Shown: positions 16,789-63,945 of the stretch, one piece after another | Position numbering within the stretch: the stretch's first letter is position 1 | Layout: every line of letters begins with the position of its first letter | Source: an uncultured Pseudomonadota bacterium | GTDB lineage: Bacteria; Pseudomonadota; Alphaproteobacteria; Rs-D84 | Length of the DNA: 64,000 nt | Direction of reading: 5' to 3' | Assembly (NCBI GenBank): GCA_902799285.1 | Contig: CADCAA010000001.1 | Location: 7,533-71,532 of the forward strand | Translations under genes and position numbers: made by a program | The notes under the pieces: model-generated | What the model was told of the DNA's origin: nothing | The model's database searches: none | What the model saw: only the letters and a program-made list of their open reading frames with translations

Positions 16789-16936
16789 ATTTTTCTCCTT
16801 TTGAGTTTTTTTTGTTATCTTTGTGTCGATACCCAAATAGTATCAAATAGTTGGTCGTTTTTACATAGGTATGGATGCCCACGATTTTATGAATTTTTTC
16901 CTTTCTTTTTATTATTGGTTGATTAAAATATTTTGT

Positions 16937-18277
16937 ATGAAGGGAAAGATATTTGTTTTTGGGATTGGATTTGTAATTTCTGGCTCGGCACTTGGTGATA
17001 TTGTGCCGGTTCAAGAAGGGTCGCCATTGAATCCAACATACGTATATAACATTAACGGTGTTGATGATATGTATGATATGCCATCTGTGCCACAAACGCC
17101 GTTTAAAATTTTGGTGAATAATGGTGATGATAATCCGTATCCTTTGTCTGTATTGGATTCTATTTCAGACGGCGCGAACGAGGTTAAGTTTGCCTTGGGC
17201 GAAGGTGGGCCTGCGACGAATAGCAATATTATTTGGTTGGTTGATGATGCGTTTGATGGGACGTTTGATGCGCCAATAGTTCAGAATTCAACAATTAAAA
17301 TCCAATTGAGTGATGCTGTTTTAAATAGTGTGTCGGCTGATGGCGAAATTGTGCATTTTACTGGTATTACAGGAAATACAAATGCGATATATTTTTATGG
17401 CGAATATGATAATGTTTATGAAATTGGTGCGTGTTCTAATGGAATTGGAACGTGTATAAAACGGCGTTATTCAAATAGTCATATTGCTGAACAACAGGCG
17501 GAACAACGTGCAATACAGATTGCCAGAATCGGTGCCCGTAATAATCCGAAAATTTTATTGCGGCCTATGATGTTGATAAATCAATATGAATTATCGGGTA
17601 TATATAATTTTTCAGATGAATTTTATATATCTGTATCACCCGAATATTATTCTGTAAAAGATTTTCAAAATGCCGGTATACGCATTAATTCTGGGACAAA
17701 ATTTGGTGGTCGGTTGTATGTTGGGGCATCTGTGTATTTGGATAAATCGAATTTTCAAAACGATGTAAGTGATTTCAAATCTGATATATATGGCGGAAAT
17801 TTGCGTTTCCGTTATGATATTGACGATGTATTATTCTTGCGCGGCGTTGGTGGTATCAGTTTTGCCAGTATTGAATGTGATAATGTTATAAATGGTGATT
17901 CTGTTATTAATAATCCGAATGCATTTGGTGTATATGGTGGTATGGATTTTGGCGCAATGTTTAACTTTGAATCGGGGATATATGTGTCGCCGTTTGTTGG
18001 ATACGATGTATTATCAGGGTCCGTGGTTGGAATTCGTGATAATAATTCTTTTGCACATTTTGGGACGGATGTTGGTTTTAAGTATTTTATGGATGGTGTG
18101 AGTTATGGATATATGTTGCGTGGTGGCATAAATTCAGACGGATTTTTTGATGCGTCGGTTGGTATTGATATTGGTTCTGTATCCGACAAAATTGGTGGTG
18201 GTGTATCCATTGGTGTTTTGGATACTGATTATGGTTTGTCGGGAAAACTTTCGGCAAATGTTAGGTTTGCTTTTTAA
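16937..18277 (+). CDS. Autotransporter-like outer-membrane protein (short passenger + beta-barrel translocator)
   Basis: ATG 16937 and a signal peptide. A helical linker (RNNPKILLRPMMLINQ) is followed by about 270 aa of amphipathic beta strands ending in ANVRFAF. Confidence 0.7.
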   Translation: MKGKIFVFGIGFVISGSALGDIVPVQEGSPLNPTYVYNINGVDDMYDMPSVPQTPFKILVNNGDDNPYPLSVLDSISDGANEVKFALGEGGPATNSNIIWLVDDAFDGTFDAPIVQNSTIKIQLSDAVLNSVSADGEIVHFTGITGNTNAIYFYGEYDNVYEIGACSNGIGTCIKRRYSNSHIAEQQAEQRAIQIARIGARNNPKILLRPMMLINQYELSGIYNFSDEFYISVSPEYYSVKDFQNAGIRINSGTKFGGRLYVGASVYLDKSNFQNDVSDFKSDIYGGNLRFRYDIDDVLFLRGVGGISFASIECDNVINGDSVINNPNAFGVYGGMDFGAMFNFESGIYVSPFVGYDVLSGSVVGIRDNNSFAHFGTDVGFKYFMDGVSYGYMLRGGINSDGFFDASVGIDIGSVSDKIGGGVSIGVLDTDYGLSGKLSANVRFAF

Positions 18278-28355: not shown

Positions 28356-29216
28356 ATGTTTCGTAAGTTTTTGATTTTTGCAATGTTTGCAACGGCGGCT
28401 GGCTATTGCTTTGCTGATTCTTATTTGCCCCAGGTGACCACGTCCGAGGTTTTTGTTAACGGTGACATAATCGAACATCGTGCGACGCAAAATGATGCGC
28501 GTGATGCGGAACCGGCGCCGGTCGCGGAATATGGTAATGTTCCTGCGTGGCCAATTGCGGGTTCGGACGCGGACGTGACTGTAAAGTGCGATGATAAACC
28601 GGGTGTAAAAAATTCTGATAATATTCGTATTGTGTCCAAAATTGGCGATGATATGATTGTTGATAATACGTTTGATTTCAATGGAACTGGTTGGACGGGT
28701 GGTGCAAATATGCTGCACGGGAACCGGATTCCAATGGGATTTGACGACGAATGCGAAAATGGTGCCGAAATGCCTTTGTTGCGTCGCGATATGCTAGAAG
28801 ATGACGGTGGCAGTGTATTGGCTGTATCGCGCAGTGGTCGTAAAAATTGCACAAAGCGTAATGGTGCGGCGGACGCCGTGTTTATGGAAATGGATAACGA
28901 TGCCGATATTGCCGAAATTGGGGTAAAATCTGATGCCCAGGCGCCAAAATCACAACCGGACCAGGTTCGTTCTTGGGTTGTCGCCAATGGCCAGACCTTG
29001 CGTGAGGTTTTACAAAATTGGTGCGACAAAGAGGGCTGGGATTTGGTATGGGCGACATCGCGCGAATACCCGATTGAGGCCAGTGCTGTATTCAAGGGTC
29101 GTTTTACAGATGTTGCGTCTGCGTTGGTGCGTAATTTTGGACGTGCGACACCTGTGCCGTATGCCAAGTTTTACAAGGGAAATTTGGTTTTGGTGATTTC
29201 TACTAACGAAGACTAA
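28356..29216 (+). CDS. TcpQ/PilL-family type IVb pilus secretin-associated protein
   Basis: Signal peptide MFRKFLIFAMFATAAGYCFA. The C-terminal block VRSWVVANGQTLREVLQNWCDKEGWDLVWATSREYPIEASAVFKGRFTDVASALVRNF...YAKFYKGNLVLVIS matches the TcpQ-domain pattern of PilL/TcpQ proteins as recalled from memory. Confidence 0.6.
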   Translation: MFRKFLIFAMFATAAGYCFADSYLPQVTTSEVFVNGDIIEHRATQNDARDAEPAPVAEYGNVPAWPIAGSDADVTVKCDDKPGVKNSDNIRIVSKIGDDMIVDNTFDFNGTGWTGGANMLHGNRIPMGFDDECENGAEMPLLRRDMLEDDGGSVLAVSRSGRKNCTKRNGAADAVFMEMDNDADIAEIGVKSDAQAPKSQPDQVRSWVVANGQTLREVLQNWCDKEGWDLVWATSREYPIEASAVFKGRFTDVASALVRNFGRATPVPYAKFYKGNLVLVISTNED

Positions 29217-29240
29217 ATGCTTGGTGGGAGATATAGAGAT

Positions 29241-30869
29241 ATGAGAAGTTTGTTGAAAAAATTTGTTGTGTTTGCGTTTCTGGGGGCTGTGCTGGCGGGC
29301 TGTGCGCGTGAACAATCGGCCAAGGTTGCGGCGACCGTTGACCAGGATTTCGTTAACGCGTATGATGCGTTTGAAATGGCAAAAAATCCCCGTGCCAAGG
29401 TGGCCAGTGGCGATACGGTATCTGTATCCGAAGGTGTATGGTTGGGGAATAAATCGATATCGCTGGAACATCGCAATAATTTGCCGGCGCAATTTGAAAC
29501 GGATACGGGCATTACGATTTTGCTGGATGAACCTGTGACGTTGCAGGTTTTGGCGAATAATATCAATACTGTGACACATATTCCGGTTAAAATCGACAGG
29601 CAAATTAATTCTGAAAAATTGAAAAAGACAATCAATGTCGCATATACCGGTAAATTGTCCGGATTGCTGTCCCAGGTTGCAACCGATTTAGACCTGTTGT
29701 GGTATTATGATAAAAATTCGATTGTGTTTTATGAAACGGAAACGCGCACGTTTTCATTGTATGCGCTGGGGACCGATATTTCGTACCAGACCGCCGTGTC
29801 GACCGATAATTCCAGTAATGTTGTGCTGGAATCAACAATGAAGGAATGGGACGAGGTTGAAAAGGCCCTGACCGCGATTGTTGGTAATGCGGAAAATTCT
29901 GATTTCACCGTGTCGCGCAGTTTGGGAACAATTACCGCCACGGCACCACCGTCTGTGTTGGCGCGTATCAGTGACTATGTTGATCGGCAAAACAAACGGT
30001 TGTCGCAATTGGTGACAATTGATGTCAAGGTTTTACAGGTATCAATCGCGAACGATTCGGCATTCGGGTTGAATTTGGCGGCGGCGATAAATTCTACATC
30101 TGGGTTGAATATCGTTGCGAACCCCAAGAATAACTTGGCGGCCGTCGGGGCCAGTTCGATGAACATCGCCGTGTTGTCAAACGCGCTGTCTGCGACAACG
30201 GGTGCGACGCACGTCGAAAACGGCAGTGTGGTCAGTGGCGCATATACAAATGATCAAATTATGAACGGATCATTGGCGCGTGGCGCGGGCAGTGCCGGCT
30301 TGATTGAGGCTTTGGCAAAACAGGGCAAGGTGTCTTTGGTGACAAATGTTGGTGTGACGACGCGTAATAATCGTGTTGCCCCGGTCAGCAATATGACATC
30401 AACCGGATATATCAAACGTTTTGAATCTCGCAACTTTACAACGGTCGAATCCAGTACCGTTGACCAGGCGGATTTACAAACTGGTTTTTCAATGCAATTG
30501 TTGCCGAATGTTTTGGAAAATGGCAAAATTTTGTTGTTGTTCAGAATGTCTGTGCGTGAATTGGTGAAAATGTCGACCCAATCGATTGGCGAGGTCACAT
30601 TGCAATTGCCCGAGGTCGAAGAACGCAGTTTTATGCAAGAGGTTATTATGGAATCCGGCCAAATGTTGGTTGTATCTGGGTTTGAAAAGCAAAAGAATAA
30701 TGACACACGTTATGGTTTGGGCGATCCTGACTTTATGGCATTGTCTGGGTCACGTTCTACGACATCCGGCCGTGATGTGTTGGTTGTTATCCTGACGCCC
30801 CAGGTATTAATCAGTCCGTTGGATGCGGAACGCAGTATCCAACAAAATTGGGGAACACCATTGAATTAA
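29241..30869 (+). CDS. Lipoprotein secretin, type IVb pilus class (PilN/TcpC/BfpB-like)
   Basis: ATG 29241 and lipobox AVLAGC. C-terminal secretin domain (GKVSLVTNVGVTTRNNRVAPV...GFSMQLLPNVLENGKILLLFRMSVREL...GQMLVVSGFEKQKNN...RDVLVVILTPQVL). Confidence 0.8.
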   Translation: MRSLLKKFVVFAFLGAVLAGCAREQSAKVAATVDQDFVNAYDAFEMAKNPRAKVASGDTVSVSEGVWLGNKSISLEHRNNLPAQFETDTGITILLDEPVTLQVLANNINTVTHIPVKIDRQINSEKLKKTINVAYTGKLSGLLSQVATDLDLLWYYDKNSIVFYETETRTFSLYALGTDISYQTAVSTDNSSNVVLESTMKEWDEVEKALTAIVGNAENSDFTVSRSLGTITATAPPSVLARISDYVDRQNKRLSQLVTIDVKVLQVSIANDSAFGLNLAAAINSTSGLNIVANPKNNLAAVGASSMNIAVLSNALSATTGATHVENGSVVSGAYTNDQIMNGSLARGAGSAGLIEALAKQGKVSLVTNVGVTTRNNRVAPVSNMTSTGYIKRFESRNFTTVESSTVDQADLQTGFSMQLLPNVLENGKILLLFRMSVRELVKMSTQSIGEVTLQLPEVEERSFMQEVIMESGQMLVVSGFEKQKNNDTRYGLGDPDFMALSGSRSTTSGRDVLVVILTPQVLISPLDAERSIQQNWGTPLN

Positions 30870-30896: not shown

Positions 30897-31371
30897 TGCC
30901 AAGGGTTGTTTCCATTTTCTATACTAATAATCAGAATTCAATCGGAGTTGAATTCGGGGCCTTCAAAAGCCTTATCAAAACCCGGTGCAGGGTTTGCACT
31001 GTTATCCGAAAGCAGGACCGATTCGGTTTTGCGATAAATGACAGATTCAGACTTTGCGCCGACATATATAAAATTTTTCGTTGGCGCAAATTTTTTTGTA
31101 TAACGAAAATTTTGTATATGGATATATCCAATGATTAAACCCCGACGATGGTACCGGTTCGGGGTGCTGTATATCGCAAGGTATATGGGATCACATGGTT
31201 TTGATGATTTTTGAACACCCCGACCGCACTCTTGATTGAGGCGGTATTTTTTGTTTGTTTCGGGATTTTGCCCCGAAAACAATTCCCGCTGTTTAACCGC
31301 CGAAATCGGCGACAAGACAAGGCTTGGTCCTGAAACAAACAAAAAATACCACGAAAGCAAAGGGGAGACAG

Positions 31372-33606
31372 ATGAAAAAGATTTTGTTTGGATTGTTTGC
31401 ATTATTGTTTACCGTGCCGGTGTGGGCGACGAATCCGTGTCAGAATTTATGGAATAAAAATTTGGCTATCAGCGGCGCATACGATGCTAATGGCAGTTAC
31501 ACATATGATGATGCCAACACAACATATTCTGAAATTATGCCCGTGACCGCTGGACAAACAGTTGTTAGTATTACCCCGTTTAGCACTATGCATTTTATTG
31601 TGGTTTATAATGCTTCTGGTGCTGTGATATATCGGCCAGGACCGCAAACAGGCACCAGGGTTACATGGACTATTCCTGATAACGGTGTTGGCATGCGACC
31701 TATATTTGGAACAGCGAGTGCACCTGTGCATCCAGATGATAATATATTGATTTCATTGGATACCACGGCGACGGCGTATACGCCTTATGATCCGCGGTGT
31801 GAGACATGTGACGGGACGGTGATGAACTATACTTCGGCAACCGGAACCGTGACACAGAACGGCACGCCGACACCGACAAACCCGATTGACCCGGTTTTCT
31901 TTCGCCAAGGCGATATGGTCCTGCGCAAAGTCGGTGATGTCGCCGATTCATACGATGCAACAACCGGTAAAATCACACGCCGCGTCGGGGTCAAGGTGCT
32001 GAAGGGAACGGAAGAGTGGACACAAACCACGAGTACTTATAACGGTCTTGTTTATTATCGCGCTCTAAGCATATTGTATAATGCACCGGCAACCGGCGGC
32101 AACAATGCCGAGTTATATCCTGTTATATCTAATGTATTATCGCATAAATCTGGCATATGGTATAATACTAGCGATATGGAAAATGGAATTTCAACTTGTA
32201 ACAATGGTCAATGTATTGCAATGTCTCTTGTTTCTACATATCCAACAACCAGTGAGTTTAAGTCTTGGCTGGCGGGGCAGTATGCCGCGGGGAAACCGGT
32301 TGTGGTTTATTACCAGTTGGCTACACCGGTCGAGGAAGATTGGACGGAAAGTTCATATTGTTATTTGGCAATCAAAATTGCGACCACGCAACATGTGGCG
32401 GGGGCGTTCAGTGGGCTGAATAGTCAGCTGACTGCGGCGATTGCGACGGTGAACAGTGTCGTCACAAATACGATTGACCAGGCGAACCGCATCGCGGCGT
32501 TGGCGACGGGCAAGCAAACCCGCCCGACGGACACTTGCCCACAATATCGGCAATGCCTGCTGGTCGAAGGTACCGACGGCACCCCGCATTGGTACGAAAT
32601 CAACGACCCGTTTTATAACTTCTTTGCCCCGATTTTGGCAACGAACACGAACGGCACATCATCCACCAACGACCCAGGATATCAGCAGTTGGAGTATATC
32701 GAATCCACCGGGACACAGTATATTGATTTGGGTTATTCTATATCTGGAGATATGGGGTTTGATTTGAAGGCACGTTGTTTGGGTGCTGCGTTTGTGTTTG
32801 GAGGTAGATTGTCTTCTACCTCTGGTGTGTCCGGTTTTAACTTTGATGAAGCTGGTAGTAAAATTGGTATACGTATGGGTGGAAACATACTTTATGATGA
32901 GGCTATTTGGTATGATGGTACGGATTATGCAGTAAGTATCAAAAATGGTGATATCGAAGTGAATGGAACGAAAGTATCTAGTTCAACATATGGTAATAAC
33001 TTTTATACAGGACGTGCATATTTGTTTGCGGTTAATGATGGCGGAAATCTCAGTTCTGTAACATTTAATCGTAGTAGAATATATTATTTCAAGATGTACA
33101 ACAATAATATTTTGACGCAAAATTTCATCCCTGTCCGCAGGCTTTCCGACAGTGCGCTCGGTATGTATGACACGGTGAGCAAAACGTTCTTTGCCAATGC
33201 GGGTAGTGGCACATTTACGGCGGGGCCGAACGTGACCAACGATTCCGACGTGCCAAGTGGCCCGACCTGGCGCGTGACGTGGACCAACAACGGCAACAGC
33301 GCAAGCGGCACCGTGTATGGCGAGGGATTGTGTAATAATGTGAGTGGAACTTCTTTGGGCGTTGCAGCAACATCAAGTCAATTAAGTAATGCGGCATGGA
33401 ATCAGAGCAGCGCAAGTTGCTGGTGCCGTGCAACGGGTTTAACAAGTGGTGGCGATACGAATACCACGGATAATGGAGTGTGGGGGTTCCTCGCCACGTA
33501 CAGTTCGGCGGCTGATTGTGCGCGCTACTGTGCGTACGACTGCGCGGACCTCGTTCGTAGCAACCACGAGGGCTTCCGTTCGGTGATATTCAACGCCGTA
33601 AATTAA
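31372..33606 (+). CDS. Secreted modular tail-fibre-like / lectin-like protein (744 aa)
   Basis: ATG 31372 after the RBS AAAGGGGAGA. Signal peptide MKKILFGLFALLFTVPVWA. Modules are described in the findings. It shares several motifs with the 51432-53390 product. Confidence 0.75.
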   Translation: MKKILFGLFALLFTVPVWATNPCQNLWNKNLAISGAYDANGSYTYDDANTTYSEIMPVTAGQTVVSITPFSTMHFIVVYNASGAVIYRPGPQTGTRVTWTIPDNGVGMRPIFGTASAPVHPDDNILISLDTTATAYTPYDPRCETCDGTVMNYTSATGTVTQNGTPTPTNPIDPVFFRQGDMVLRKVGDVADSYDATTGKITRRVGVKVLKGTEEWTQTTSTYNGLVYYRALSILYNAPATGGNNAELYPVISNVLSHKSGIWYNTSDMENGISTCNNGQCIAMSLVSTYPTTSEFKSWLAGQYAAGKPVVVYYQLATPVEEDWTESSYCYLAIKIATTQHVAGAFSGLNSQLTAAIATVNSVVTNTIDQANRIAALATGKQTRPTDTCPQYRQCLLVEGTDGTPHWYEINDPFYNFFAPILATNTNGTSSTNDPGYQQLEYIESTGTQYIDLGYSISGDMGFDLKARCLGAAFVFGGRLSSTSGVSGFNFDEAGSKIGIRMGGNILYDEAIWYDGTDYAVSIKNGDIEVNGTKVSSSTYGNNFYTGRAYLFAVNDGGNLSSVTFNRSRIYYFKMYNNNILTQNFIPVRRLSDSALGMYDTVSKTFFANAGSGTFTAGPNVTNDSDVPSGPTWRVTWTNNGNSASGTVYGEGLCNNVSGTSLGVAATSSQLSNAAWNQSSASCWCRATGLTSGGDTNTTDNGVWGFLATYSSAADCARYCAYDCADLVRSNHEGFRSVIFNAVN

Positions 33607-35162: not shown

Positions 35163-35981
35163 ATGAAAAAATTGGTCTTTTTATTGTGTGTTTTGGCGGT
35201 GTTGCCGGCGTTTGCGGTGGGGCGTTCCACGATTGGTGCGCAAAGGCCTGGGGCACGCGCGATTATTTTGCCAAGTGCGCAATTGCACTCTGCGATTAAA
35301 TCATCGGCCGGGGTGGAAAATGCGACCGGTGTTGTTGCCGTTGTTGATGATGCGCCACAGCCTGCGCCAATTAATCGTGATGCGGAAAGAATGGCCTGTG
35401 TGCGCAATAATATTGGGATGAATAATACCTTTGTTTGGGCGGCCCGAGACAGCAATACGTCCAGTTATGCGACCATGGTCGAAGATGTCGAGCATCCTGA
35501 AAATAATGTGTGTTTCGTATTGGTCGGTATGCGGTCACAAGATTCGCGGATTAACGTGTCCGATATTCAACCGCGATATTTCGAGTGGGGCGAAAATATC
35601 ACCTGTGGTTCTTGGGTTGACGAGGCCAAGATGGAGGCGCGAATACTGGATGCGAAAAAGTCTGCGCGAACATGGGGGACAATCGGTGGCGCGGTTGGTG
35701 GTGCCGGTATCGGTGTTGGCGCAATGGAATTATTTGGAAATAAATTGATCGGTGGTGCAGTTCAGGGACAAAAAAATGAGGATTTGTCGTCTGTGCAATT
35801 AATTGCGTCCCAGGCCGAGGTATTCAAAGATGAAAATAATGCGCGGTATGGGTATTTTGTTGAATTGGTAGAAGAGTTGAAAGAATTCTGTGGTAAATCT
35901 GAAAATGCGAATAATCAGGATTGCAAGAATGATAAATATGCCAATTTAATTAAATGGTATGATGGGTATTACAAAAAATAG
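35163..35981 (+). CDS. Secreted hypothetical protein, paralog of 6364-7167
   Basis: Signal peptide MKKLVFLLCVLAVLPAFA. Over about 125 aa roughly two-thirds of residues are identical by eye to the 6.4-kb gene product, and some DNA stretches are near-identical. Confidence 0.6.
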   Translation: MKKLVFLLCVLAVLPAFAVGRSTIGAQRPGARAIILPSAQLHSAIKSSAGVENATGVVAVVDDAPQPAPINRDAERMACVRNNIGMNNTFVWAARDSNTSSYATMVEDVEHPENNVCFVLVGMRSQDSRINVSDIQPRYFEWGENITCGSWVDEAKMEARILDAKKSARTWGTIGGAVGGAGIGVGAMELFGNKLIGGAVQGQKNEDLSSVQLIASQAEVFKDENNARYGYFVELVEELKEFCGKSENANNQDCKNDKYANLIKWYDGYYKK

Positions 35982-36090: not shown

Positions 36091-37116
36091 ATGTCGGATA
36101 TATTTGATAAATTATTGATTTTACGTTCGCCGGGAATTGGGCCCGTTTCGTATGAAAAATTGGTGCGGCAATTTGGATCGGTCGCCGCGGCGGCGGACAG
36201 TTTGCGTTCGAATACAGAATTGGTGGATTCTGTGCGGCGCGAAATCGATGCGGCAAATGAAATTGGTGCCGTATTTGTATCTGAGGATGATGATTTTTAT
36301 CCGGTGAGTTTGAAAAATGTCAAAGGGCATCCGCCGGTTATTTGCACGCGCGGAAATTTGGAAACTTTGCGGCGGCCGTGTGTCGGTATTGTTGGAACCC
36401 GACATGCGACGGCCACAGGATTGCATTTTGTGGGTAATTTGGCATGTGCATTTGCGGAACATAACGTGGCGGTGGCGTCCGGGATGGCGATTGGCACGGA
36501 TACGGCGGCGCATCGGGGTGCACTGCGTGCGGCGGGTAATGCCCAGACTATTGCGGTTTTGGGCGGCGGTGTGGACTATATTTGGCCGTTGGAAAACGAA
36601 TCGTTGTATTATGAAATTATCGAACGTGGCGTCGTGGTCAGCGAAATGCCAATTGGTTTTGTACCAAAGGGGTCAAACTTTGTGCAACGTAATCGATGGA
36701 TTGCCGGTATCGCCAGTAAGTTGATTTTGAGTGAGGCTGATTTGAATTCGGGCAGTATGCGCACCGCGCGATTCGCAATTGATATGGGGCGCGAATTGTG
36801 GGCTGTGCCGGGGCATCCGGCGGATGCGCGGGCCATGGGACCGAATTCTTTGATTGCGTCGGGTGCGGCAAAACTTTGTTCCGGGGTGCAGGATTTTTTC
36901 GATTCAGATTCGGGTGTGGTGAAAAATGGTTCAAAAAATGTGAAAAATTCAGAATCTGAAAATTTAATTATGGATGCGTTGGGGGTGGTTCCTGTTTCTG
37001 AATCTGTATTGGCAGATGTTGTCAAAAAATCAGTTTCGGAAATCAAACGCGATTTGGTTGTATTGGAATTACGCGGATTGGTGCGAAAAGTCGATGGCGG
37101 TTATGTTCGTGTGTGA
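36091..37116 (+). CDS. dprA: DNA-processing protein DprA (Smf)
   Basis: Rossmann-like core GIVGTRHATATGLHFV...VASGMAIGTDTAAHRGAL and a C-terminal winged-helix-like tail. Confidence 0.85.
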   Translation: MSDIFDKLLILRSPGIGPVSYEKLVRQFGSVAAAADSLRSNTELVDSVRREIDAANEIGAVFVSEDDDFYPVSLKNVKGHPPVICTRGNLETLRRPCVGIVGTRHATATGLHFVGNLACAFAEHNVAVASGMAIGTDTAAHRGALRAAGNAQTIAVLGGGVDYIWPLENESLYYEIIERGVVVSEMPIGFVPKGSNFVQRNRWIAGIASKLILSEADLNSGSMRTARFAIDMGRELWAVPGHPADARAMGPNSLIASGAAKLCSGVQDFFDSDSGVVKNGSKNVKNSESENLIMDALGVVPVSESVLADVVKKSVSEIKRDLVVLELRGLVRKVDGGYVRV

Positions 37117-50731: not shown

Positions 50732-50881
50732 TCGCGAAATTCTGCGGAATTTTTTATAATTTATAAAATTGGCGAAGTTTTTTTGCCAATTTTTTTTGTG
50801 TTTGGATTTTTTTTTACGGTTTTTTGTGGTATAATGTGTATGCAAACAAATTTATAAACCAACCGATGGGGGGAGACAAAG

Positions 50882-51370
50882 ATGAAAAAACATTTAGTCT
50901 TTGCCGGTGCCATGGGCGTATTGCTTATGGGTGCGGCAAATGCAGAAGTCGTACAGAATTTTCCGGCGGATACGACACATCCAGAATTTACTGCGGAGTC
51001 TAATCAAGCAAAGCCGTATGCTGTGCGTGAATCCAATATAAAAGCAGCAACAACGAATTATGTTAATAATCGCCTGGACGAAGCAAATGCCGATGTTCAA
51101 GCTTTGGCCGGTACCGCGGCAACAGATGCGGCAACTGTGGATACCAATGCGACTGCGATTGCAGCAATGCAAACGGGCAGACAGGTGCATCCAGGTACGG
51201 ATACGTGCAGTACTGCATCTGATAATGATTTGACCGCTGCTGGAACGGCTGCGGGTGCATCGTATGTTGCGTGTGGTTATATTGTACCAAATGGTACAAA
51301 TGCGGACAGCAATACTGCATCAAATTACAATTGGGTCAAGATTGTGACGGTTCCGTCGTTGGAATCTTAG
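50882..51370 (+). CDS. Small secreted protein with Ala/Thr-rich coiled-coil and Cys pair, upstream partner of the 51.4-kb fibre-like gene
   Basis: Signal peptide MKKHLVFAGAMGVLLMGAANA. AIAAMQTGRQVHPGTDTC resembles the KQTRP..C joint of the two large proteins. Confidence 0.55.
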   Translation: MKKHLVFAGAMGVLLMGAANAEVVQNFPADTTHPEFTAESNQAKPYAVRESNIKAATTNYVNNRLDEANADVQALAGTAATDAATVDTNATAIAAMQTGRQVHPGTDTCSTASDNDLTAAGTAAGASYVACGYIVPNGTNADSNTASNYNWVKIVTVPSLES

Positions 51371-51431
51371 TGCCTGAAAAAAATAAATAGTTGTTCATAT
51401 ATGATTTCTTTGTTCAGTGGGAGAGAACGTT

Positions 51432-53390
51432 ATGTCTAGATTAAAATTCTTGTCATGTGTGATATTATCGTCATTTGTGGCGATATCCGCGGCGTATGCA
51501 GAAGGCGAAGAAGCAATTCCTGCACAGACCGAGCCCGAATCGTTGCAAGATGTTGTTACGGGTAATACACCAACAGAGGCCACAATAACATCGATGGGCG
51601 TTTGTGGCGAGAATTTATTTAATCCCCAATTGTTATCCGAATCGGATTTTAATGTGACTATATCAAATGGGACTATGAGTGCCGTTGGTAAATGGAATCA
51701 ATATGTGAATGCATATGTGTCTGCATATAATTTTGGTTTCAAGCCGGGTAAAAAGTATAAAGTCACATATACCATCAAATGTGGTGATACTGAGACAGGG
51801 ACGCGTTTTTTAGGGTTAAAGTTGGCTGATAATACGGTTGTTGGTCCGACGAATGTGTGTGCTGGTCAAACCGGGGACAAGTTGGTTTCGTATTGGTATG
51901 ACAGCAGTGTGTCGAATCCCGTTGTTGGTATGGTTGCGGGTGGTGAAGCATCAGAGGAAGAGATAACATTGCAAAATGTTATGGTGACCGAGGCTGAAAT
52001 GTCGACGTCGTCGTATATTCCATATCTTGCATGTATCAAAGTTGCGTCAAAGTTGAGTACAGACAATCGTGCCGCGGTTGTGGAAAATCGTTTGAACGAT
52101 GTTCGTTCTGTGATTACCAATTTGATAGGTCAAATGGAGACAAATACCACGAATATTCTGTCACTGAATAATGCAAAACAAACACGTCCGGCGACGGCCT
52201 GTGATGATGGCAAAAAATGTTTGTTGGTCAAAGATACCAATGGCGGGAATCATTGGTATGAAATCCAGGATTGTAACGAGGATGATTTCTTGGATGATGT
52301 TGGGACGATGACGACGTGTACTGATTGTGGTGCTTATGTTGCCGGGATGCGTTATGCCAATGGCGGTAATGGTAAAATGTGTGAGGCTTTATCAAGTACG
52401 GCTGCGGCAGGATGTGATACTAATGAATGGGCAACTTCTTTTGCCAATAATACAAACAATACCAGTGGAATAATTTATGGAACGGCCAGAACGGTTCCAA
52501 TTGCGGAACGTAATGTTGGCACGGTTGTAGAGTTAAGCAGTGCGACTTTGGCAATGTCTGGAAATGTTTGTGTGTGTCAGGCGACCAGATATGTGTCAAA
52601 TGGTGTTGAAACAGTTTTGCCCGAAAGTGATAAGTGGATGGTGGCCAAAGTTATGACAGGTACGTTTACTAATGATAACTGTTTAGAAGTTTGTGCGCAT
52701 GAAGACCAGGGCGTATCTGGTTCTGCAAGTGATTCTGCAAAATATGCGGCATATTTCAAAAATATTAGTAGTTCATGCAGCCCAAATGCACAGAGCACAA
52801 CAACATGTAATTACAATTCGTTCTTGCGGACATTGTATGATGGGTTGGATTCGGGTTTAGTGTCGATTTCCATTTCGTCCCAAGGAACAAATGGATTACG
52901 TGTTTACGGCAGTTGCGGGACAGGTGGTAGTTTTGCATCTGATACAGATATTTGCGGAACATCGGTGACAAATCCGGGCGCGTGGGTTGTTGGTGCGATA
53001 CAAACAGATGCGCTTAATGGAACGCTGTATTCCAGTGTGTACAATGGCGCGTTGGTATATGGTAAATCCAGATGTGTTTCAGATTCATCTGTGTTTGACA
53101 ATGTTGCGGACTTTGATGTCGTAAAGTTGGATAGTGCGCCGGCGGCATCCAATTCTGGGACGGTATGTTTGCACAATATAACGGGATACAAACCGGCCAA
53201 TGGTAGCAAGACTGCAACCAGTGCTGAAAGCCAAAAATACTGGATTGTTAAAAAGTATGCAACGGCCGAAGAATGCAATGCAGAAAATAGTACAAGCGGT
53301 TGCTATGGCGAAGGTTGGACCGAAAGTTATCTGAGGAATGGTAATTTCGATTTCTATGGCAAGGTCGGCGATGCATGTTTGGCTAATTAA
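51432..53390 (+). CDS. Secreted modular tail-fibre-like protein (652 aa), paralog-by-module of 31372-33606
   Basis: ATG 51432 after the RBS GGGAGAG. Signal peptide MSRLKFLSCVILSSFVAISAAYA. Shared motifs CGENLFN, IKVAS, a coiled coil followed by AKQTRPATAC..KKCLLV...HWYEIQD, and two C-terminal CxC...W...Cx3C modules. Confidence 0.7.
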   Translation: MSRLKFLSCVILSSFVAISAAYAEGEEAIPAQTEPESLQDVVTGNTPTEATITSMGVCGENLFNPQLLSESDFNVTISNGTMSAVGKWNQYVNAYVSAYNFGFKPGKKYKVTYTIKCGDTETGTRFLGLKLADNTVVGPTNVCAGQTGDKLVSYWYDSSVSNPVVGMVAGGEASEEEITLQNVMVTEAEMSTSSYIPYLACIKVASKLSTDNRAAVVENRLNDVRSVITNLIGQMETNTTNILSLNNAKQTRPATACDDGKKCLLVKDTNGGNHWYEIQDCNEDDFLDDVGTMTTCTDCGAYVAGMRYANGGNGKMCEALSSTAAAGCDTNEWATSFANNTNNTSGIIYGTARTVPIAERNVGTVVELSSATLAMSGNVCVCQATRYVSNGVETVLPESDKWMVAKVMTGTFTNDNCLEVCAHEDQGVSGSASDSAKYAAYFKNISSSCSPNAQSTTTCNYNSFLRTLYDGLDSGLVSISISSQGTNGLRVYGSCGTGGSFASDTDICGTSVTNPGAWVVGAIQTDALNGTLYSSVYNGALVYGKSRCVSDSSVFDNVADFDVVKLDSAPAASNSGTVCLHNITGYKPANGSKTATSAESQKYWIVKKYATAEECNAENSTSGCYGEGWTESYLRNGNFDFYGKVGDACLAN

Positions 53391-53412
53391 TACAGGGTTT
53401 TTGTGTGTGGGT

Positions 53413-53438
53413 AAAGGGTCGCGGTAACGTGACCCTTT
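53413..53438. terminator. Hairpin terminator between convergent genes
   Basis: AAAGGGTC-(10-nt loop)-GACCCTTT. Confidence 0.6.
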
Positions 53439-53442
53439 GTTA

Positions 53443-54390
53443 TTAAATTTTATTTGCGGAATTAAAAACCTCGCGGATTAAAAATATACACGCATCGCGG
53501 ATTGCGTCGCGACCGGCGTCCATATATTTTCGTGGGTTAAAGTTTTGCGGATTTTTATATAAATCTTGGCGGACGGCGGCCGTCATCGCCAAACGTAAAT
53601 CACTGTCTATATTTATTTTGCAAATGTTTGTGTGTGTTGCGGTAAAGTTTAATTGTTCGATATCGATACCCATTGCGTTTTTTATGTCGCCACCAAATTT
53701 ATTTATTTTGTCGACTAAATAGTTTGGTATGGATGATGCACCGTGCAAAACCAATGGTGTGTTCGGAATTTTTTCCTGGATTTCTGATAATATATCGAAA
53801 CGCAGTGTTTCATCCGCGCTGTGCCTTTTATATGCACCGTGTGATGTGCCGATTGCGATGGCCAGCGAATCGGTGCCTGTTTGTGATACGAATTTTGCTG
53901 CGGTGTCTGGGTCGGTGTATACCGATTCGGTATTTGATGTATTTTCATCTTCGAATCCGGTGAGTTGACCCAGTTCAGATTCCACCGATGCGCCGCGTGC
54001 GTGTGCGTATCGCACAATATTGTGTGTCGCATCGATGTTTTCGTCGATGTCGCGATTGCTGAAATCCAACATAACACTGGAAAAACCGATATCGATTGCG
54101 TGCATACATGATTCAATCGAATGTCCGTGATCCAGGTGCAGGGCGATTTGTTCGTGTGGATTGATTTTTGCGCCAGAAATAATACCCATTAGTATATCGT
54201 CGCCCATATATTTTAATGCCGATTCGGAAATTGCGATAATAAGTGGACTGTGCGTCAATCGGGCCGCGGACAGAATAGCCTGGATCGTTTCCATATTATA
54301 TGCATTAAATGCCGGAACAGCGAATCCGTGATTCATCGCGGATTTTAGCATATTTTCGGTGTTGCATAGTCCAAATTTGTCAAATCGCAT
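53443..54390 (-). CDS. fba: Class II fructose/ketose-bisphosphate aldolase
   Basis: Start set at ATG 54390 (MRFDKFGL...). Motifs FAVPAFNAYNME, LHLDHG and GTSHGAYK. Confidence 0.85.
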   Translation of the reverse strand: MRFDKFGLCNTENMLKSAMNHGFAVPAFNAYNMETIQAILSAARLTHSPLIIAISESALKYMGDDILMGIISGAKINPHEQIALHLDHGHSIESCMHAIDIGFSSVMLDFSNRDIDENIDATHNIVRYAHARGASVESELGQLTGFEDENTSNTESVYTDPDTAAKFVSQTGTDSLAIAIGTSHGAYKRHSADETLRFDILSEIQEKIPNTPLVLHGASSIPNYLVDKINKFGGDIKNAMGIDIEQLNFTATHTNICKINIDSDLRLAMTAAVRQDLYKNPQNFNPRKYMDAGRDAIRDACIFLIREVFNSANKI

Positions 54391-54549
54391 TGAAAATTCT
54401 CTCTTTTGGTTTGATAATAGCAAGAAAGTTATTGGTTTGGCTAGGTTTTTTTTGATGGCTCGGCTTGACTATGGGTTATTTTGTGTCATAATTATATTGA
54501 AGTGGGTAAGAAAATTTACCTGTAAAAACAATTTAAAAAGGATTAAAAC

Positions 54550-61656: not shown

Positions 61657-63945
61657 ATGAGAAGTAGAACAGGATTTTATTCGGTTGTTTTAACAAGCAT
61701 TATTTGTATGCTGTCGGGTGGTGTGATGGCTGCGACCCCGGTGCGCGTTTTGGGAACAAATAGTCAATCGGGTGGCGATGCGGCGGCTGGCAGTTCGTTG
61801 AATAATACGGGGGCTGTTTCTGTTAAACCTGCGACATCTGTGAATGCGCGTGCATCTTCGTTGCGTTTTTCGCCAACTGTGACAACCAAGGCGGAAAATT
61901 CATCGGGTTCTGCATCGGTGAATACCACTGTTCGCAATCCATCGTCGGGTGTTGTTGTGAATCCGTCGAATGCGGCTTCTGCGCGTTTGTCTATTGGAAA
62001 ATATTTGAATTTATCACACTCAACGAAAAATGTTGCGACAAATGGTGGTGGTTCGTCATCTGGGGGTGGATCTTCGTCCGGTGGCGGTTCGTCGGGCGGT
62101 GGTGCGTCCAATGCGGATATTGATCGTTTGACTGCTGAATTGGATGATTTGCAAAGACAGATTAATGCCCTGAAAGATGGTAAACAGAATGCTTTACAGG
62201 TTGGTGATGGTGATTACATTGATATCGGTGGTGATGATGATAATGTGATTTCTATTGATATTGAAGCGTTGAAAGATGATTTGCGTCTGGCATTGGGAAC
62301 AGAAAGACCAATTTTAACCGAAATCGATGAAAATTATAAATTGTGGTGGTGCTATGCCAATGATGCTAAAACGTCATGTGCAAGTGATAGACAGTTGGTC
62401 GTTGATTTGGGCAGCGCGATGGATGAATATGATTTGCCCGCAAATAATGTTTCGTTAAAGGATGCTTTGGCTGGGAAACAGGGGATATTGACCCCCGCGG
62501 ATAATGGTTTTATTGCGATTGAGCAAGCAACGGGCAAAATTGGAATACAGTTTAATGATTTAAGGGATGCGTTGGGTATATCCGATGTGAAACAGTCTGA
62601 AATCCGCTTTACCGAAGATGGCAAATTGCAATGGCGTTATATGGATGAATTCGAAGAAGAGCCAGATCCAGAGACGGGTTTGCAAGTTAAAAAATGGAAT
62701 ACGGCTGATATTGACGGATTGATAACGCAACGTTTGTCTAATTTTGAAGTGGAATTGGCGGGCAAGCAGGGAACTTTGGTGGCCAATCCAGATGGATATA
62801 TCCAGATTTCAAATAACAATGTCATTGATGTTAAACTTCAGGATTTGCGTGATGCTTTGAACATTCCAAATCCCCAGGCGAAAATAGAAATGGAAATAAC
62901 AAATGCGGGTAAATTGCGCTGGCGTTATTTAGACGAATTTGAAACAGATGAAGAAACGGGCGAACAGGTCAAAAAATGGACCGAGGTTTCCGAAGATTTG
63001 GGGACGTTTGTTGATGGCAAATTGGCGAATTATGCAACCAAGACTTATGTTGATGATTCTGTGAATGCCCGTCAAATGAAGTTGATTGAAAATGAAAACG
63101 GATTCATCGAAATATCAGAAGAAAATGTTATCGATGTCAAATTTGCTGATTTAGAGGCAGCGTTGGGTATTGATAACAAGCGCAATGCGGAAATGCGTGT
63201 TGAAAATGGCGTTTTCCAATGGCGCTATATGAGTGATTTTGAAACAAATGACCAAGGCGAAATTCAAAAAGATGACCAAGGCAACGATATCAAAAAGTGG
63301 ACAAATGTCTATGATTTGAATGCTGTATTAAATGATTATGTGACGAAAACCGCGTTGAATGAAATTGTGGAACGTATTGATACTGATTTGGCTGGCAAAC
63401 AGATAAGGTTAACGCCGGCTGATGATGGTTATATTGTTTTGAACGAGCAAACTGGTGAAATCGCTGTTGATATGCAGGGGTTGATGCAATATTTGACGAT
63501 TGAAGCTAATGGGGCCAGAACGACTGAATTGATTGTGTTTGATGGTAAGTTGCAATGGCGTTATACGGATGAATATGAAACGGATAACGATCCGGAATCC
63601 CCAGGATATGGAAATCAGAAAAAGATTTGGCATGTTTTGGATTTAACAGCTGTGGAATTGCCGCTGTATGTCAAAGATTATTATCTGAAAAAGAATTATT
63701 ACAACAAAACCTATATCGATAATTTGGCGCGGACAATAGAAAATAACATCAATGTGACGTTGGAAAATCTGCATCCATCGAATAATGGTTTGTTCTTGCT
63801 GAGTGTCAGTGACGGTGCGAACAACACCAAAGTGTCGTCATGGCATGCGGTCCAGATTGTTGATGGCGATGGAACTTTGTTGTCTAATTTAGGTTCAAAT
63901 TCGAATTCGAATTCTGAGCCAGAGCAAAATTCAGGTAATGATTAA
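61657..63945 (+). CDS. Large secreted repeat protein (762 aa): Ser/Thr-rich N-region, Gly-Ser linker, coiled coil, five modules of about 100 aa
   Basis: Signal peptide ...CMLSGGVMAA, (GGGSSS)n at about 62043-62110, and five LxGKQ...dGyI.I......I.V....L..AL...G.LqWRY.DEFE....KKW modules between about 62170 and 63720. Confidence 0.7.
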   Translation: MRSRTGFYSVVLTSIICMLSGGVMAATPVRVLGTNSQSGGDAAAGSSLNNTGAVSVKPATSVNARASSLRFSPTVTTKAENSSGSASVNTTVRNPSSGVVVNPSNAASARLSIGKYLNLSHSTKNVATNGGGSSSGGGSSSGGGSSGGGASNADIDRLTAELDDLQRQINALKDGKQNALQVGDGDYIDIGGDDDNVISIDIEALKDDLRLALGTERPILTEIDENYKLWWCYANDAKTSCASDRQLVVDLGSAMDEYDLPANNVSLKDALAGKQGILTPADNGFIAIEQATGKIGIQFNDLRDALGISDVKQSEIRFTEDGKLQWRYMDEFEEEPDPETGLQVKKWNTADIDGLITQRLSNFEVELAGKQGTLVANPDGYIQISNNNVIDVKLQDLRDALNIPNPQAKIEMEITNAGKLRWRYLDEFETDEETGEQVKKWTEVSEDLGTFVDGKLANYATKTYVDDSVNARQMKLIENENGFIEISEENVIDVKFADLEAALGIDNKRNAEMRVENGVFQWRYMSDFETNDQGEIQKDDQGNDIKKWTNVYDLNAVLNDYVTKTALNEIVERIDTDLAGKQIRLTPADDGYIVLNEQTGEIAVDMQGLMQYLTIEANGARTTELIVFDGKLQWRYTDEYETDNDPESPGYGNQKKIWHVLDLTAVELPLYVKDYYLKKNYYNKTYIDNLARTIENNINVTLENLHPSNNGLFLLSVSDGANNTKVSSWHAVQIVDGDGTLLSNLGSNSNSNSEPEQNSGND

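Follow-up and report, generated by a model that had tools for sequence, protein, structure and literature searches.

What do exported proteins that look fibre-like in their modular build do in a bacterial cell when their genes lie among housekeeping genes? This question is raised by three genes, here called A, B and C, in a stretch of 64,000 nucleotides from an uncultured alphaproteobacterium of the order Rs-D84 (contig CADCAA010000001.1 of assembly GCA_902799285.1, positions 7,533 to 71,532 of the forward strand), which we refer to as the window. An original prediction, made from the letters of the window, had described their products as a modular family in which a conserved stalk joint carries exchangeable head domains. 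Our analysis firmly places A, B and C in a large, previously undescribed multigene family of exported modular proteins that is defined by this joint. As to its function we favour, with a probability of roughly 0.55, secreted, probably trimeric and lectin-like adhesin fibres that attach to partner cells, with the joint acting both as oligomerisation module and as recombination hinge.

Positions and export of the three open reading frames (ORFs) agree with the original prediction (Table 1). In a public gene prediction for this contig, A likewise starts with MSRLKF and has 652 amino acids (aa), and all three N-termini read as signal peptidase I signal peptides (A, ...AISAAYA/EGE; B, ...VPVWA/TNP; C, ...GAANA/EVV). 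The ordered joint that A, B and C were thought to share is statistically significant: BLASTP aligns A and B with 34% identity over 136 aa (58 bits, E=6e-13) and in a second segment (A 303-391 versus B 602-694, E=3e-4), and it also aligns C with B (E=2e-5) and with A (E=0.004). A hidden Markov model (HMM) of the joint, built from 13 homologues that all come from outside the window, was run against all 1202 ORFs of the window with at least 30 aa and retrieved A (1.2e-31), B (5.9e-26) and C (8.3e-5), with the next best ORF at 0.86. For C, which had been taken for a reduced version of the joint, the picture has to be revised. A profile of six C orthologues aligns to the joint profile with strand, helix and first Cys in register (hhalign probability 96.7%, E=3e-10), and an analogue of the hairpin, C...CGYIxPxGT...NYxWVKI, is kept in all six orthologues, which argues that C is a divergent, complete joint-only protein rather than a truncated one.

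The anatomy of the joint emerges from an alignment of 206 distinct copies. Within about 82 residues, a strand (I-K-I-A-T-T) is followed by an amphipathic helix of about five heptads, by K-Q-T-R-P, by C-P-x-G-K-K-C and by a hairpin, which consists of L-L-V-x-D, a short turn and H-W-Y-E-I. The K-Q-T-R-P turn and the Cys-x5-Cys loop C-P-x-G-K-K-C are invariant, as are C-L-L-V and W-Y-E-I. Heptad positions a (F15, L22, I/V29, T36, I43) and d (V/L18, A/T25, V32, Q39, L46) are hydrophobic at 15, 18, 22, 29, 32, 43 and 46, and the core residues T36 and Q39 are conserved as well. AlphaFold2 (AF2) monomer models place the helix at residues 207-243 of A, followed by strands 262-267 and 273-278, and at 339-379 of B, followed by strands 394-399 and 405-410. 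From pattern and models we infer a disulfide-stabilised, parallel coiled coil with a foldon-like lock. Sequence searches of the PDB with A, B and the joint profile gave nothing significant; the weak matches (E 0.04-4) were HA2, reovirus sigma-1 and the stalk of a GCN4-fused adhesin, all of them trimeric coiled coils. The C-terminus of T4 fibritin aligns to the joint in the expected register with an hhalign probability of only 17%, at which homology to the foldon is not demonstrable, and the comparison is kept as an analogy.

The search for further members bears out the family that had been proposed. Among 1.84 billion representatives, the joint profile detects 352 clusters at 50% identity, of which 321 score E<=1e-10. 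No match to A, B or C exists in Pfam, NCBIfam or PHROGs (in PHROGs none at E<0.09) or to ten diverse relatives in Pfam, and a literature search that included work on Rs-D84/Enterousia surface proteins found no description of the joint family. Scanning 185,579 species genomes with a strict peptide pattern located 63 loci, all of them in metagenome-assembled genomes (MAGs) of gut or rumen Alphaproteobacteria, including RUG14746, RUG13870, RUG13827, UBA3635, RUG13375 and Candidatus Enterousia onthequi, which accounts for four. Since the pattern is strict, the copy numbers obtained (at least 20 in RUG14746 and at least 17 in RUG13870) are lower bounds, and placement in Rs-D84 is by name only for the Candidatus Enterousia MAG and by similarity for the others. 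Candidatus Enterousia belongs to the order Rs-D84, whose genomes are smaller than 1 Mb and lack respiration as well as pathways for making amino acids, nucleotides and lipids, and whose members are predicted to be obligate symbionts or parasites that depend on partner cells (PMC12306168). The joint family is not described in that survey.

Around the joint, the architecture is highly variable. About 225 proteins resolve into about 60 domain architectures with exactly one joint (J) in each; modules Y, Nb, T, Na or none precede it, and nothing, Y, Y-W, R or D1-D2 follows. A is Na-J-D1-D2, B is Nb-T-J-Y-W, and Y-J-Y dumbbells are the commonest form. In 26 of 68 genomic copies the protein stops 1-7 residues past WYEI with a conserved ending. 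We considered that such joint-terminal genes might be split or frameshifted, with the heads in a downstream ORF, and rejected this, because the 747 kb of related genomes contain only seven fragments with modules that lack a joint and the C-terminal endings are conserved. The idea of a stalk joint with exchangeable heads therefore holds insofar as one joint is combined with many modules, and it needs one correction: the joint is a central or terminal organiser with variable modules on both sides, and more than a stalk for a C-terminal head.

Several of these modules have recognisable relatives or folds. The N-terminal domains with CGENLFN in A and CQNLWN in B, whose likeness had been noticed from the motifs, are probably related (hhalign 65.8%, E=6e-5). 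Two C-terminal Cys-rich modules in A and one in B, as originally counted, are indeed homologous (W of B versus D1 of A, 95.9%, E=6e-9; D1 versus D2, 99.1%, E=6e-19; unrelated module pairs <6%), and an HMM of the B-type W module matches A twice; the common formula CxC...W...C-x3-C that had been given for the copies in A fits only the first, the second being CxH...W...C-x8-C. Module Na is modelled by AF2 with a predicted local distance difference test score (pLDDT) of 80-88, and Foldseek relates it to the carbohydrate-binding modules (CBMs) CBM16, CBM4 and CBM22 at template modelling (TM) scores of about 0.45-0.48 and E about 1e-3. The structure search with A also matches Bacteroides surface glycan-binding protein B (7kwb, E=2e-4). 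Module Y of B, with pLDDT up to 95, resembles the sandwiches of pentraxin, galectin, LamG and CBM40 (TM 0.4-0.55), and its weak fold matches include PTX3 with its coiled coil; a match of B aa 441-536 to the C-terminal domain of the phi29 preneck appendage is not significant (E=0.012). Na and Y have no match in Pfam, and the Cys-rich modules W, D and R have no structural match. On the basis of these models we infer that flanking modules bind glycans.

Module Y also has a life of its own. Homologues of B aa 429-622, with the pattern GYTxLEYIESTGTQYIDTG...MYDTVS..FYTNAGTG.F.AGP, are widespread outside the joint family; the proteins that contain them are either short and secreted or, in material from other sources, phage-like and devoid of a signal peptide. 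Some of the non-family proteins carry the Pfam domain PF09479 (Listeria-Bacteroides repeats), and several Y-module proteins have an N-terminal segment 'TSKEYVD...Q..IP' that is reminiscent of the start of the joint.

Lectin-like modules do not in themselves require a fibre on a cell surface, and the same proteins might be soluble, secreted or periplasmic glycan-binding proteins for nutrient capture or particle agglutination. The export signals are of the Sec type only and neither anchor, lipobox nor beta-barrel was detected, and lectin- or CBM-like folds (among them the match to 7kwb) as well as the frequency of Y-J-Y dumbbells would suit such a role. However, according to the published survey (PMC12306168), the genomes of Rs-D84 encode neither sugar transporters nor secreted glycoside hydrolases, so that nutritional glycan capture would have no downstream pathway, and the extreme diversification of syntenic copies is a better fit to the recognition of cell surfaces that vary. 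We consider a soluble function unlikely. The Cys-rich terminal modules D1/D2, W and R, disulfide-stabilised and without a structural match, suggest another role, in which they would be the active parts of secreted toxins or effectors and the lectin-like modules would direct them to partner or competitor cells, as in lectin-like bacteriocins. A polymorphic, multicopy family with exchangeable modules would be in keeping with this, but a third of the members end at the joint, many carry lectin-like modules only, no conserved adjacent immunity-like gene was found, and no toxin family was matched in Pfam or NCBIfam, which makes this role very unlikely.

The genomic context speaks for cellular proteins. 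The window contains dnaA, dnaN, gyrB and other housekeeping genes and no phage genes, and A, B and C stand among dnaN, efp, fba, rpsT and plsY. The order dnaN-efp-C-A-fba is kept in five genomes, a sixth having efp-C-fba without A; C orthologues lie directly upstream of A-type genes in loci L002, L004, L005 and L008, and locus L048 has C in the same slot and no A-type gene. A terminator-like hairpin after efp, a candidate extended -10 promoter, a spacer of 61 nt between C and A in which no terminator-like site was found, and a strong hairpin after A together indicate that C and A are probably co-transcribed as one operon. Within this conserved order, the family genes are hypervariable: compared with the window copies, DnaN is 97% and EF-P 92-97% identical, C 37-45% and A 30-34%.

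As originally noted, the logic of phage receptor-binding proteins is thus found in Sec-exported cellular products, with signal-peptide-like N-termini in 142 of 157 representatives, housekeeping neighbours and fold matches to CBMs and tail fibres. The latter come from the viral structure library BFVD, where 89 matches at E<=1e-3, mostly tail fibres and tail proteins with CenC-type CBMs, have TM-scores <=0.3 and are driven by the CBM-like domain. Could the genes nevertheless belong to phages, as tail-fibre or receptor-binding genes of prophage remnants or as tailocin parts? Tail fibres and tail proteins are the best structural matches in the viral library, module Y occurs elsewhere in phage-like proteins without a signal peptide, and a single viral contig with a joint exists among 2.9 million in IMG/VR. 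This contig (L065) is 98% identical over 5.9 kb to a region of RUG14746, and in both copies a family gene adjoins genes for endolysin, capsid, tail-tube and terminase. L065 looks like what is left of a prophage, with sequence that is probably host flank at the far end: that end is 88-99% identical to ORFs in the MAGs RUG13870 and UBA3635, where the homologous ORF is longer. Against a phage origin stand the signal peptides in about 90% of the members, the lack of any PHROG match and of any match in a tblastn search of A and B against 50,697 phage genomes, the occurrence in just that one viral contig, phage structural genes beside a family gene in only one of the 63 loci, and the housekeeping surroundings of A, B and C. 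We regard a phage origin as very unlikely. The remnant itself, at L065 1-9255 and L013 5038-12231 (RUG14746 contig 2), is small and podovirus-like and carries endolysin, capsid, tail-tube A/B and partial terminase genes.

The same pair of sequences offers a view on how the genes may change. In the family genes of L065 and RUG14746, the first 444 nt are 94% and the joints 81% identical, and the middle has no match, so that the body of the gene (the mature part) looks as if it had been replaced between strains. More generally, joint DNA is 77% identical within a genome and 59% between genomes, and exact 25-mers common to paralogues make up 3.2% of the joint, 0.8% of the N-side and 0.2% of the C-side. 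The mean GC content at third codon positions (GC3) of the joint is 0.53 in the multicopy subfamily and 0.34 in the single-copy A-type, with 0.27-0.37 in the neighbouring variable modules; joint, R and W modules of the multicopy subfamily reach 0.51-0.61 (family genes L002-L064; in the window, the joint and module W of B). In our reading, these patterns reflect recombination or gene conversion that often affects the joint, and GC-biased gene conversion possibly lies behind the raised GC3. B is a compositional mosaic. That the joint DNA is diverged, AT-rich in A and GC-rich in B, had been seen correctly (GC 0.42 and GC3 0.41 in A, GC 0.58 and GC3 0.70 in B, with 44% ungapped nucleotide identity). 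From this an old or horizontally sourced family had been deduced, of which the first part stands, as A and B are old paralogues. Foreign DNA as the source of the GC-rich joint of B was rejected: joints throughout the multicopy subfamily have a high GC3, and their difference from the A-type joints explains the contrast between A and B without a foreign origin.

The multicopy branch has a further peculiarity at the RNA level. B and more than 25 paralogues have a conserved 5' region in common. In its 3' part, CAAUGAU and AUCAUUG pair to form a long-range helix, and there are two hairpins, of which the first ends in GGGGUG, as well as a third, terminator-like one that has a U-run. The second hairpin has many compensatory changes and is 85-100% paired over three helices, the lower two at 99-100%. 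The leader scores 0.381 for covariation compared with 0.205 in shuffles (none of 500 reached the observed value) and <=0.14 in slid controls. An alternative pairing of GGUCGGGGUG with CACCCCGACC overlaps the 5' half of the terminator, and the layout as a whole suggests a leader of the attenuator or riboswitch type. With a covariance model, 33 copies of the leader were detected in 747 kb, and almost all of them stand immediately before a family gene (among others at L007, L009-L017, L019, L021, L023 and L024). The window has exactly one, and none lies upstream of C-A. Rfam has no family that matches the B leader region at gathering score, and the leader may represent a new class of regulatory RNA. 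Other paralogues (L056, L058 and, on the minus strand, L029) are preceded by leaders of a second class, which are similarly laid out.

Directly upstream of B lie TcpQ-like and secretin genes; apart from these, the window lacks genes for pili or type II secretion. In RUG14746 (L029), TcpQ (85%) and secretin (94%) are likewise followed by a family gene, which has other modules than B. The pair could be an export route of the family, or it could be competence-related, given dprA nearby. The joint might then serve mainly for sorting or docking, as a signal read by a shared machine for export or attachment to the surface, such as this pair, and not for oligomerisation. The joint is the sole universal element, no module lacks it in the related genomes apart from the seven fragments, and B as well as its RUG14746 counterpart directly follow the TcpQ and secretin genes. 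In most members, however, the joint is internal and in others C-terminal, which is unusual for a sorting signal, and oligomerisation modules are typically designed like this, as a heptad helix with a hairpin after it. The secretin linkage itself carries little weight, since it is seen in only two closely related genomes (secretin 94% identical). A sorting function is, in our view, quite unlikely.

Taken together, adhesin fibres organised by the joint account best for the data. After Sec export and disulfide formation, the joint helix would assemble into a parallel, probably trimeric coiled coil, and the hairpin would keep it in register, much like the C-terminal foldon of T4 fibritin. Short fibres or dumbbells would result, each binding module being displayed in triplicate at one end or at both. 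Through them the bacterium, which depends on others for its metabolism, could hold on to glycans of a partner cell or of the host surface. The parts of the DNA that are most conserved between paralogues, namely joint, signal-peptide region and flanks, would act as homologous-recombination hinges for module swapping, which would explain both the many architectures and the hypervariable syntenic copies. The joint-only mini-member C may co-assemble with A or anchor it, which is speculative.

Several points weigh against these fibres. The joint helix has low pLDDT in the AF2 monomer models, and the proposed trimer follows from the heptad pattern and from analogy. Fold matches are marginal for Na (E about 1e-3) and not significant for Y (best E=6e-3). 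No conserved partner, chaperone or anchor gene recurs near family genes and no lipobox was found in the family proteins, which could instead stay periplasmic or be released. The taxonomic range is that of the loci located with the strict pattern, and not of the 352 clusters as a whole. Finally, the density of exact matches in the joint is partly expected from protein conservation, and the C-side modules R and W are also rich in GC3, so that a hinge shaped by gene conversion is not the only way to read these data.

A more far-reaching picture can be drawn tentatively, and we regard it as possible at best. The family might be a partner-recognition repertoire of trimeric, double-ended lectin fibres, built on a foldon-like joint that arose independently of phage fibres and continually reshuffled at that joint, with the multicopy branch switched by a riboswitch-like or attenuator leader, in a gut lineage that depends obligately on other cells. 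Rs-D84, including Candidatus Enterousia, is widespread in animal guts and predicted to live off other cells. In such a genome, a few percent of the sequence belongs to the joint family, whose genes evolve much faster than those around them; together with the lectin-like modules, this makes it an obvious candidate for the attachment machinery. Recombinant modules could serve in glycan arrays, for pull-down or labelling of partner cells and for strain tracking, and the joint itself may be useful as a compact, disulfide-locked oligomerisation tag.

Table 1. Positions of the features discussed here (nucleotides of the window; aa, residues of the encoded protein)
Feature	Position	Strand	Description
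Gene A	51432..53390	+	652-aa family member, signal peptide aa 1-23
A module Na	51603..52016	+	aa 58-195, beta-sandwich resembling carbohydrate-binding modules (AF2, Foldseek)
A joint	52029..52274	+	aa 200-281: CIKVAS strand, helix 207-243, KQTRP, C257...C263-LLVKD hairpin strand, HWYEIQ strand
A module D1	52278..52781	+	aa 283-450, Cys-rich, CVC380-382...W402...C417-x3-C421; homologous to B module W
A module D2	52782..53387	+	aa 451-652, second, divergent copy of the D1-type Cys-rich module, C579-L-H...W603...C615-x8-C624
Gene B	31372..33606	+	744-aa family member, signal peptide aa 1-19
Structured RNA leader upstream of B	31118..31252	+	covariance model; part of a conserved 5' region of roughly 440 nt (30950-31371)
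B module Nb	31438-31806	+	aa 23-145
B module T	31807-32361	+	aa 146-330
B joint	32365-32610	+	aa 332-413
B module Y	32656-33237	+	aa 429-622, ConA/pentraxin/galectin-like sandwich
B module W	33247-33603	+	aa 626-744, CWC...W...C-x3-C-x3-C
Gene C	50882..51370	+	162-aa minimal family member, signal peptide aa 1-21, then short FPADT segment
C divergent joint	51038-51346	+	aa 53-155: IKAATT, helix, GRQVHP, C109...C131-GYIVPNGT...NYNWVKIV
Terminator-like hairpin after efp	50765-50793		upstream of the candidate C-A promoter
Candidate extended -10 promoter of the C-A operon	50827..50835	+	TGgTATAAT; putative, read from sequence
Strong terminator-like hairpin after A	53410-53441		14-bp stem
TcpQ-like and secretin genes	28356-30869		directly upstream of B
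dprA	36091-37116
dnaA	37461-38792
Aldolase gene	53443-54423	-	class II fructose-bisphosphate aldolase family (PF01116)
Further predicted exported protein	16871-18277
Further predicted exported protein	35163-35981
Further predicted exported protein	61657-63945

Beyond the joint genes, some observations on their surroundings may be added. A second recurrent family of Cys-rich proteins with signal peptide (about 750-890 aa) lies within 3 kb of joint genes in ten loci, in variable orientation (L041 1758-4430, L014 2598-5063 and eight others), and has no counterpart in the window. The aldolase gene is kept in related MAGs at about 73% identity; the published Rs-D84 survey describes genomes without fructose-bisphosphate aldolase. 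Among the further predicted exported proteins of the window, one of 468 aa (16871-18277) has an autotransporter beta-domain, and two of 272 aa (35163-35981) and 762 aa (61657-63945) have signal-peptide-like N-termini and no Pfam match. GC skew is positive over nearly all of the window (1-64000), its cumulative value rising from 0.3 to 11.7 without a change of sign despite the presence of dnaA, dnaN and gyrB, which places the skew switch of the replication origin outside the window.

In the context of known systems, coiled coils that oligomerise lectin-like beta-sandwich domains, as proposed here for the joint, are found in collectins and in the long pentraxin PTX3; these are eukaryotic and without sequence relation, so that the likeness is one of analogy only. 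T4 fibritin (gp wac) likewise combines a heptad coiled coil with a subsequent hairpin, G-x-x-hydrophobic-V-x-x-D-G-x-W-x-x-hydrophobic, and a third of the joint family shares with it that this hairpin ends the protein. Unlike fibritin, the joint contains the invariant KQTRP and the Cys-x5-Cys loop, is Sec-exported and in most cases has other domains after it. Phage receptor-binding proteins and tail fibres with CBM-like domains appear to share with the family their jelly-roll or CBM domains, helical segments, beta-rich tips and module exchange, whereas the joint family has signal peptides and neither a virion-attachment domain nor a phage gene context; judged by context and sequence, it is not a family of phage tail fibres.

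Among surface proteins of bacteria, the trimeric autotransporter adhesins of the YadA/Hia type are modular coiled-coil adhesins of Gram-negative bacteria with exchangeable heads as well. They are defined by a C-terminal anchor, a 12-stranded beta-barrel, of which Pfam detects none in the joint family, which therefore does not belong to the trimeric autotransporters. Its C-termini are either the joint itself or soluble-looking modules. The msp2/p44 families of Anaplasma offer a parallel in genome evolution, since reduced-genome alphaproteobacteria there too have many paralogues with conserved 5' and 3' segments around variable parts, which fits segmental recombination. In contrast to msp2/p44, no single expression site with silent donor cassettes was found for the joint family, most copies look complete and have their own leader, and the proteins are not outer-membrane beta-barrels.

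The mosaic adhesive trimer (MAT) fibres of Bdellovibrio bacteriovorus come nearest. All MAT members have a beta-rich domain of about 130 aa right after the signal peptide (PMC10769870), their stalks are beta-helices or beta-prisms, and an S74 chaperone-protease is present in many of them (Caulton et al. 2024, PMC10769870). The joint family differs in that its N-terminal modules vary and its sole universal module, the joint, is internal or C-terminal, that its stalk is alpha-helical in the AF2 models and that S74 is missing (no Pfam domain in A, B, C or ten diverse members); no sequence relation to MAT is detectable. As the MAT N-terminal domain, the beta-helical stalk and S74 are all absent, the joint family is not a branch of MAT. 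What both have in common are multicopy, Sec-exported, phage-fibre-like cellular proteins, a conserved module combined with exchangeable binding modules, the swapping of tips between paralogues, and hosts that depend on contact with other cells. The MAT fibres are the closest working analogue, and the joint family is an independent family that follows the same logic.

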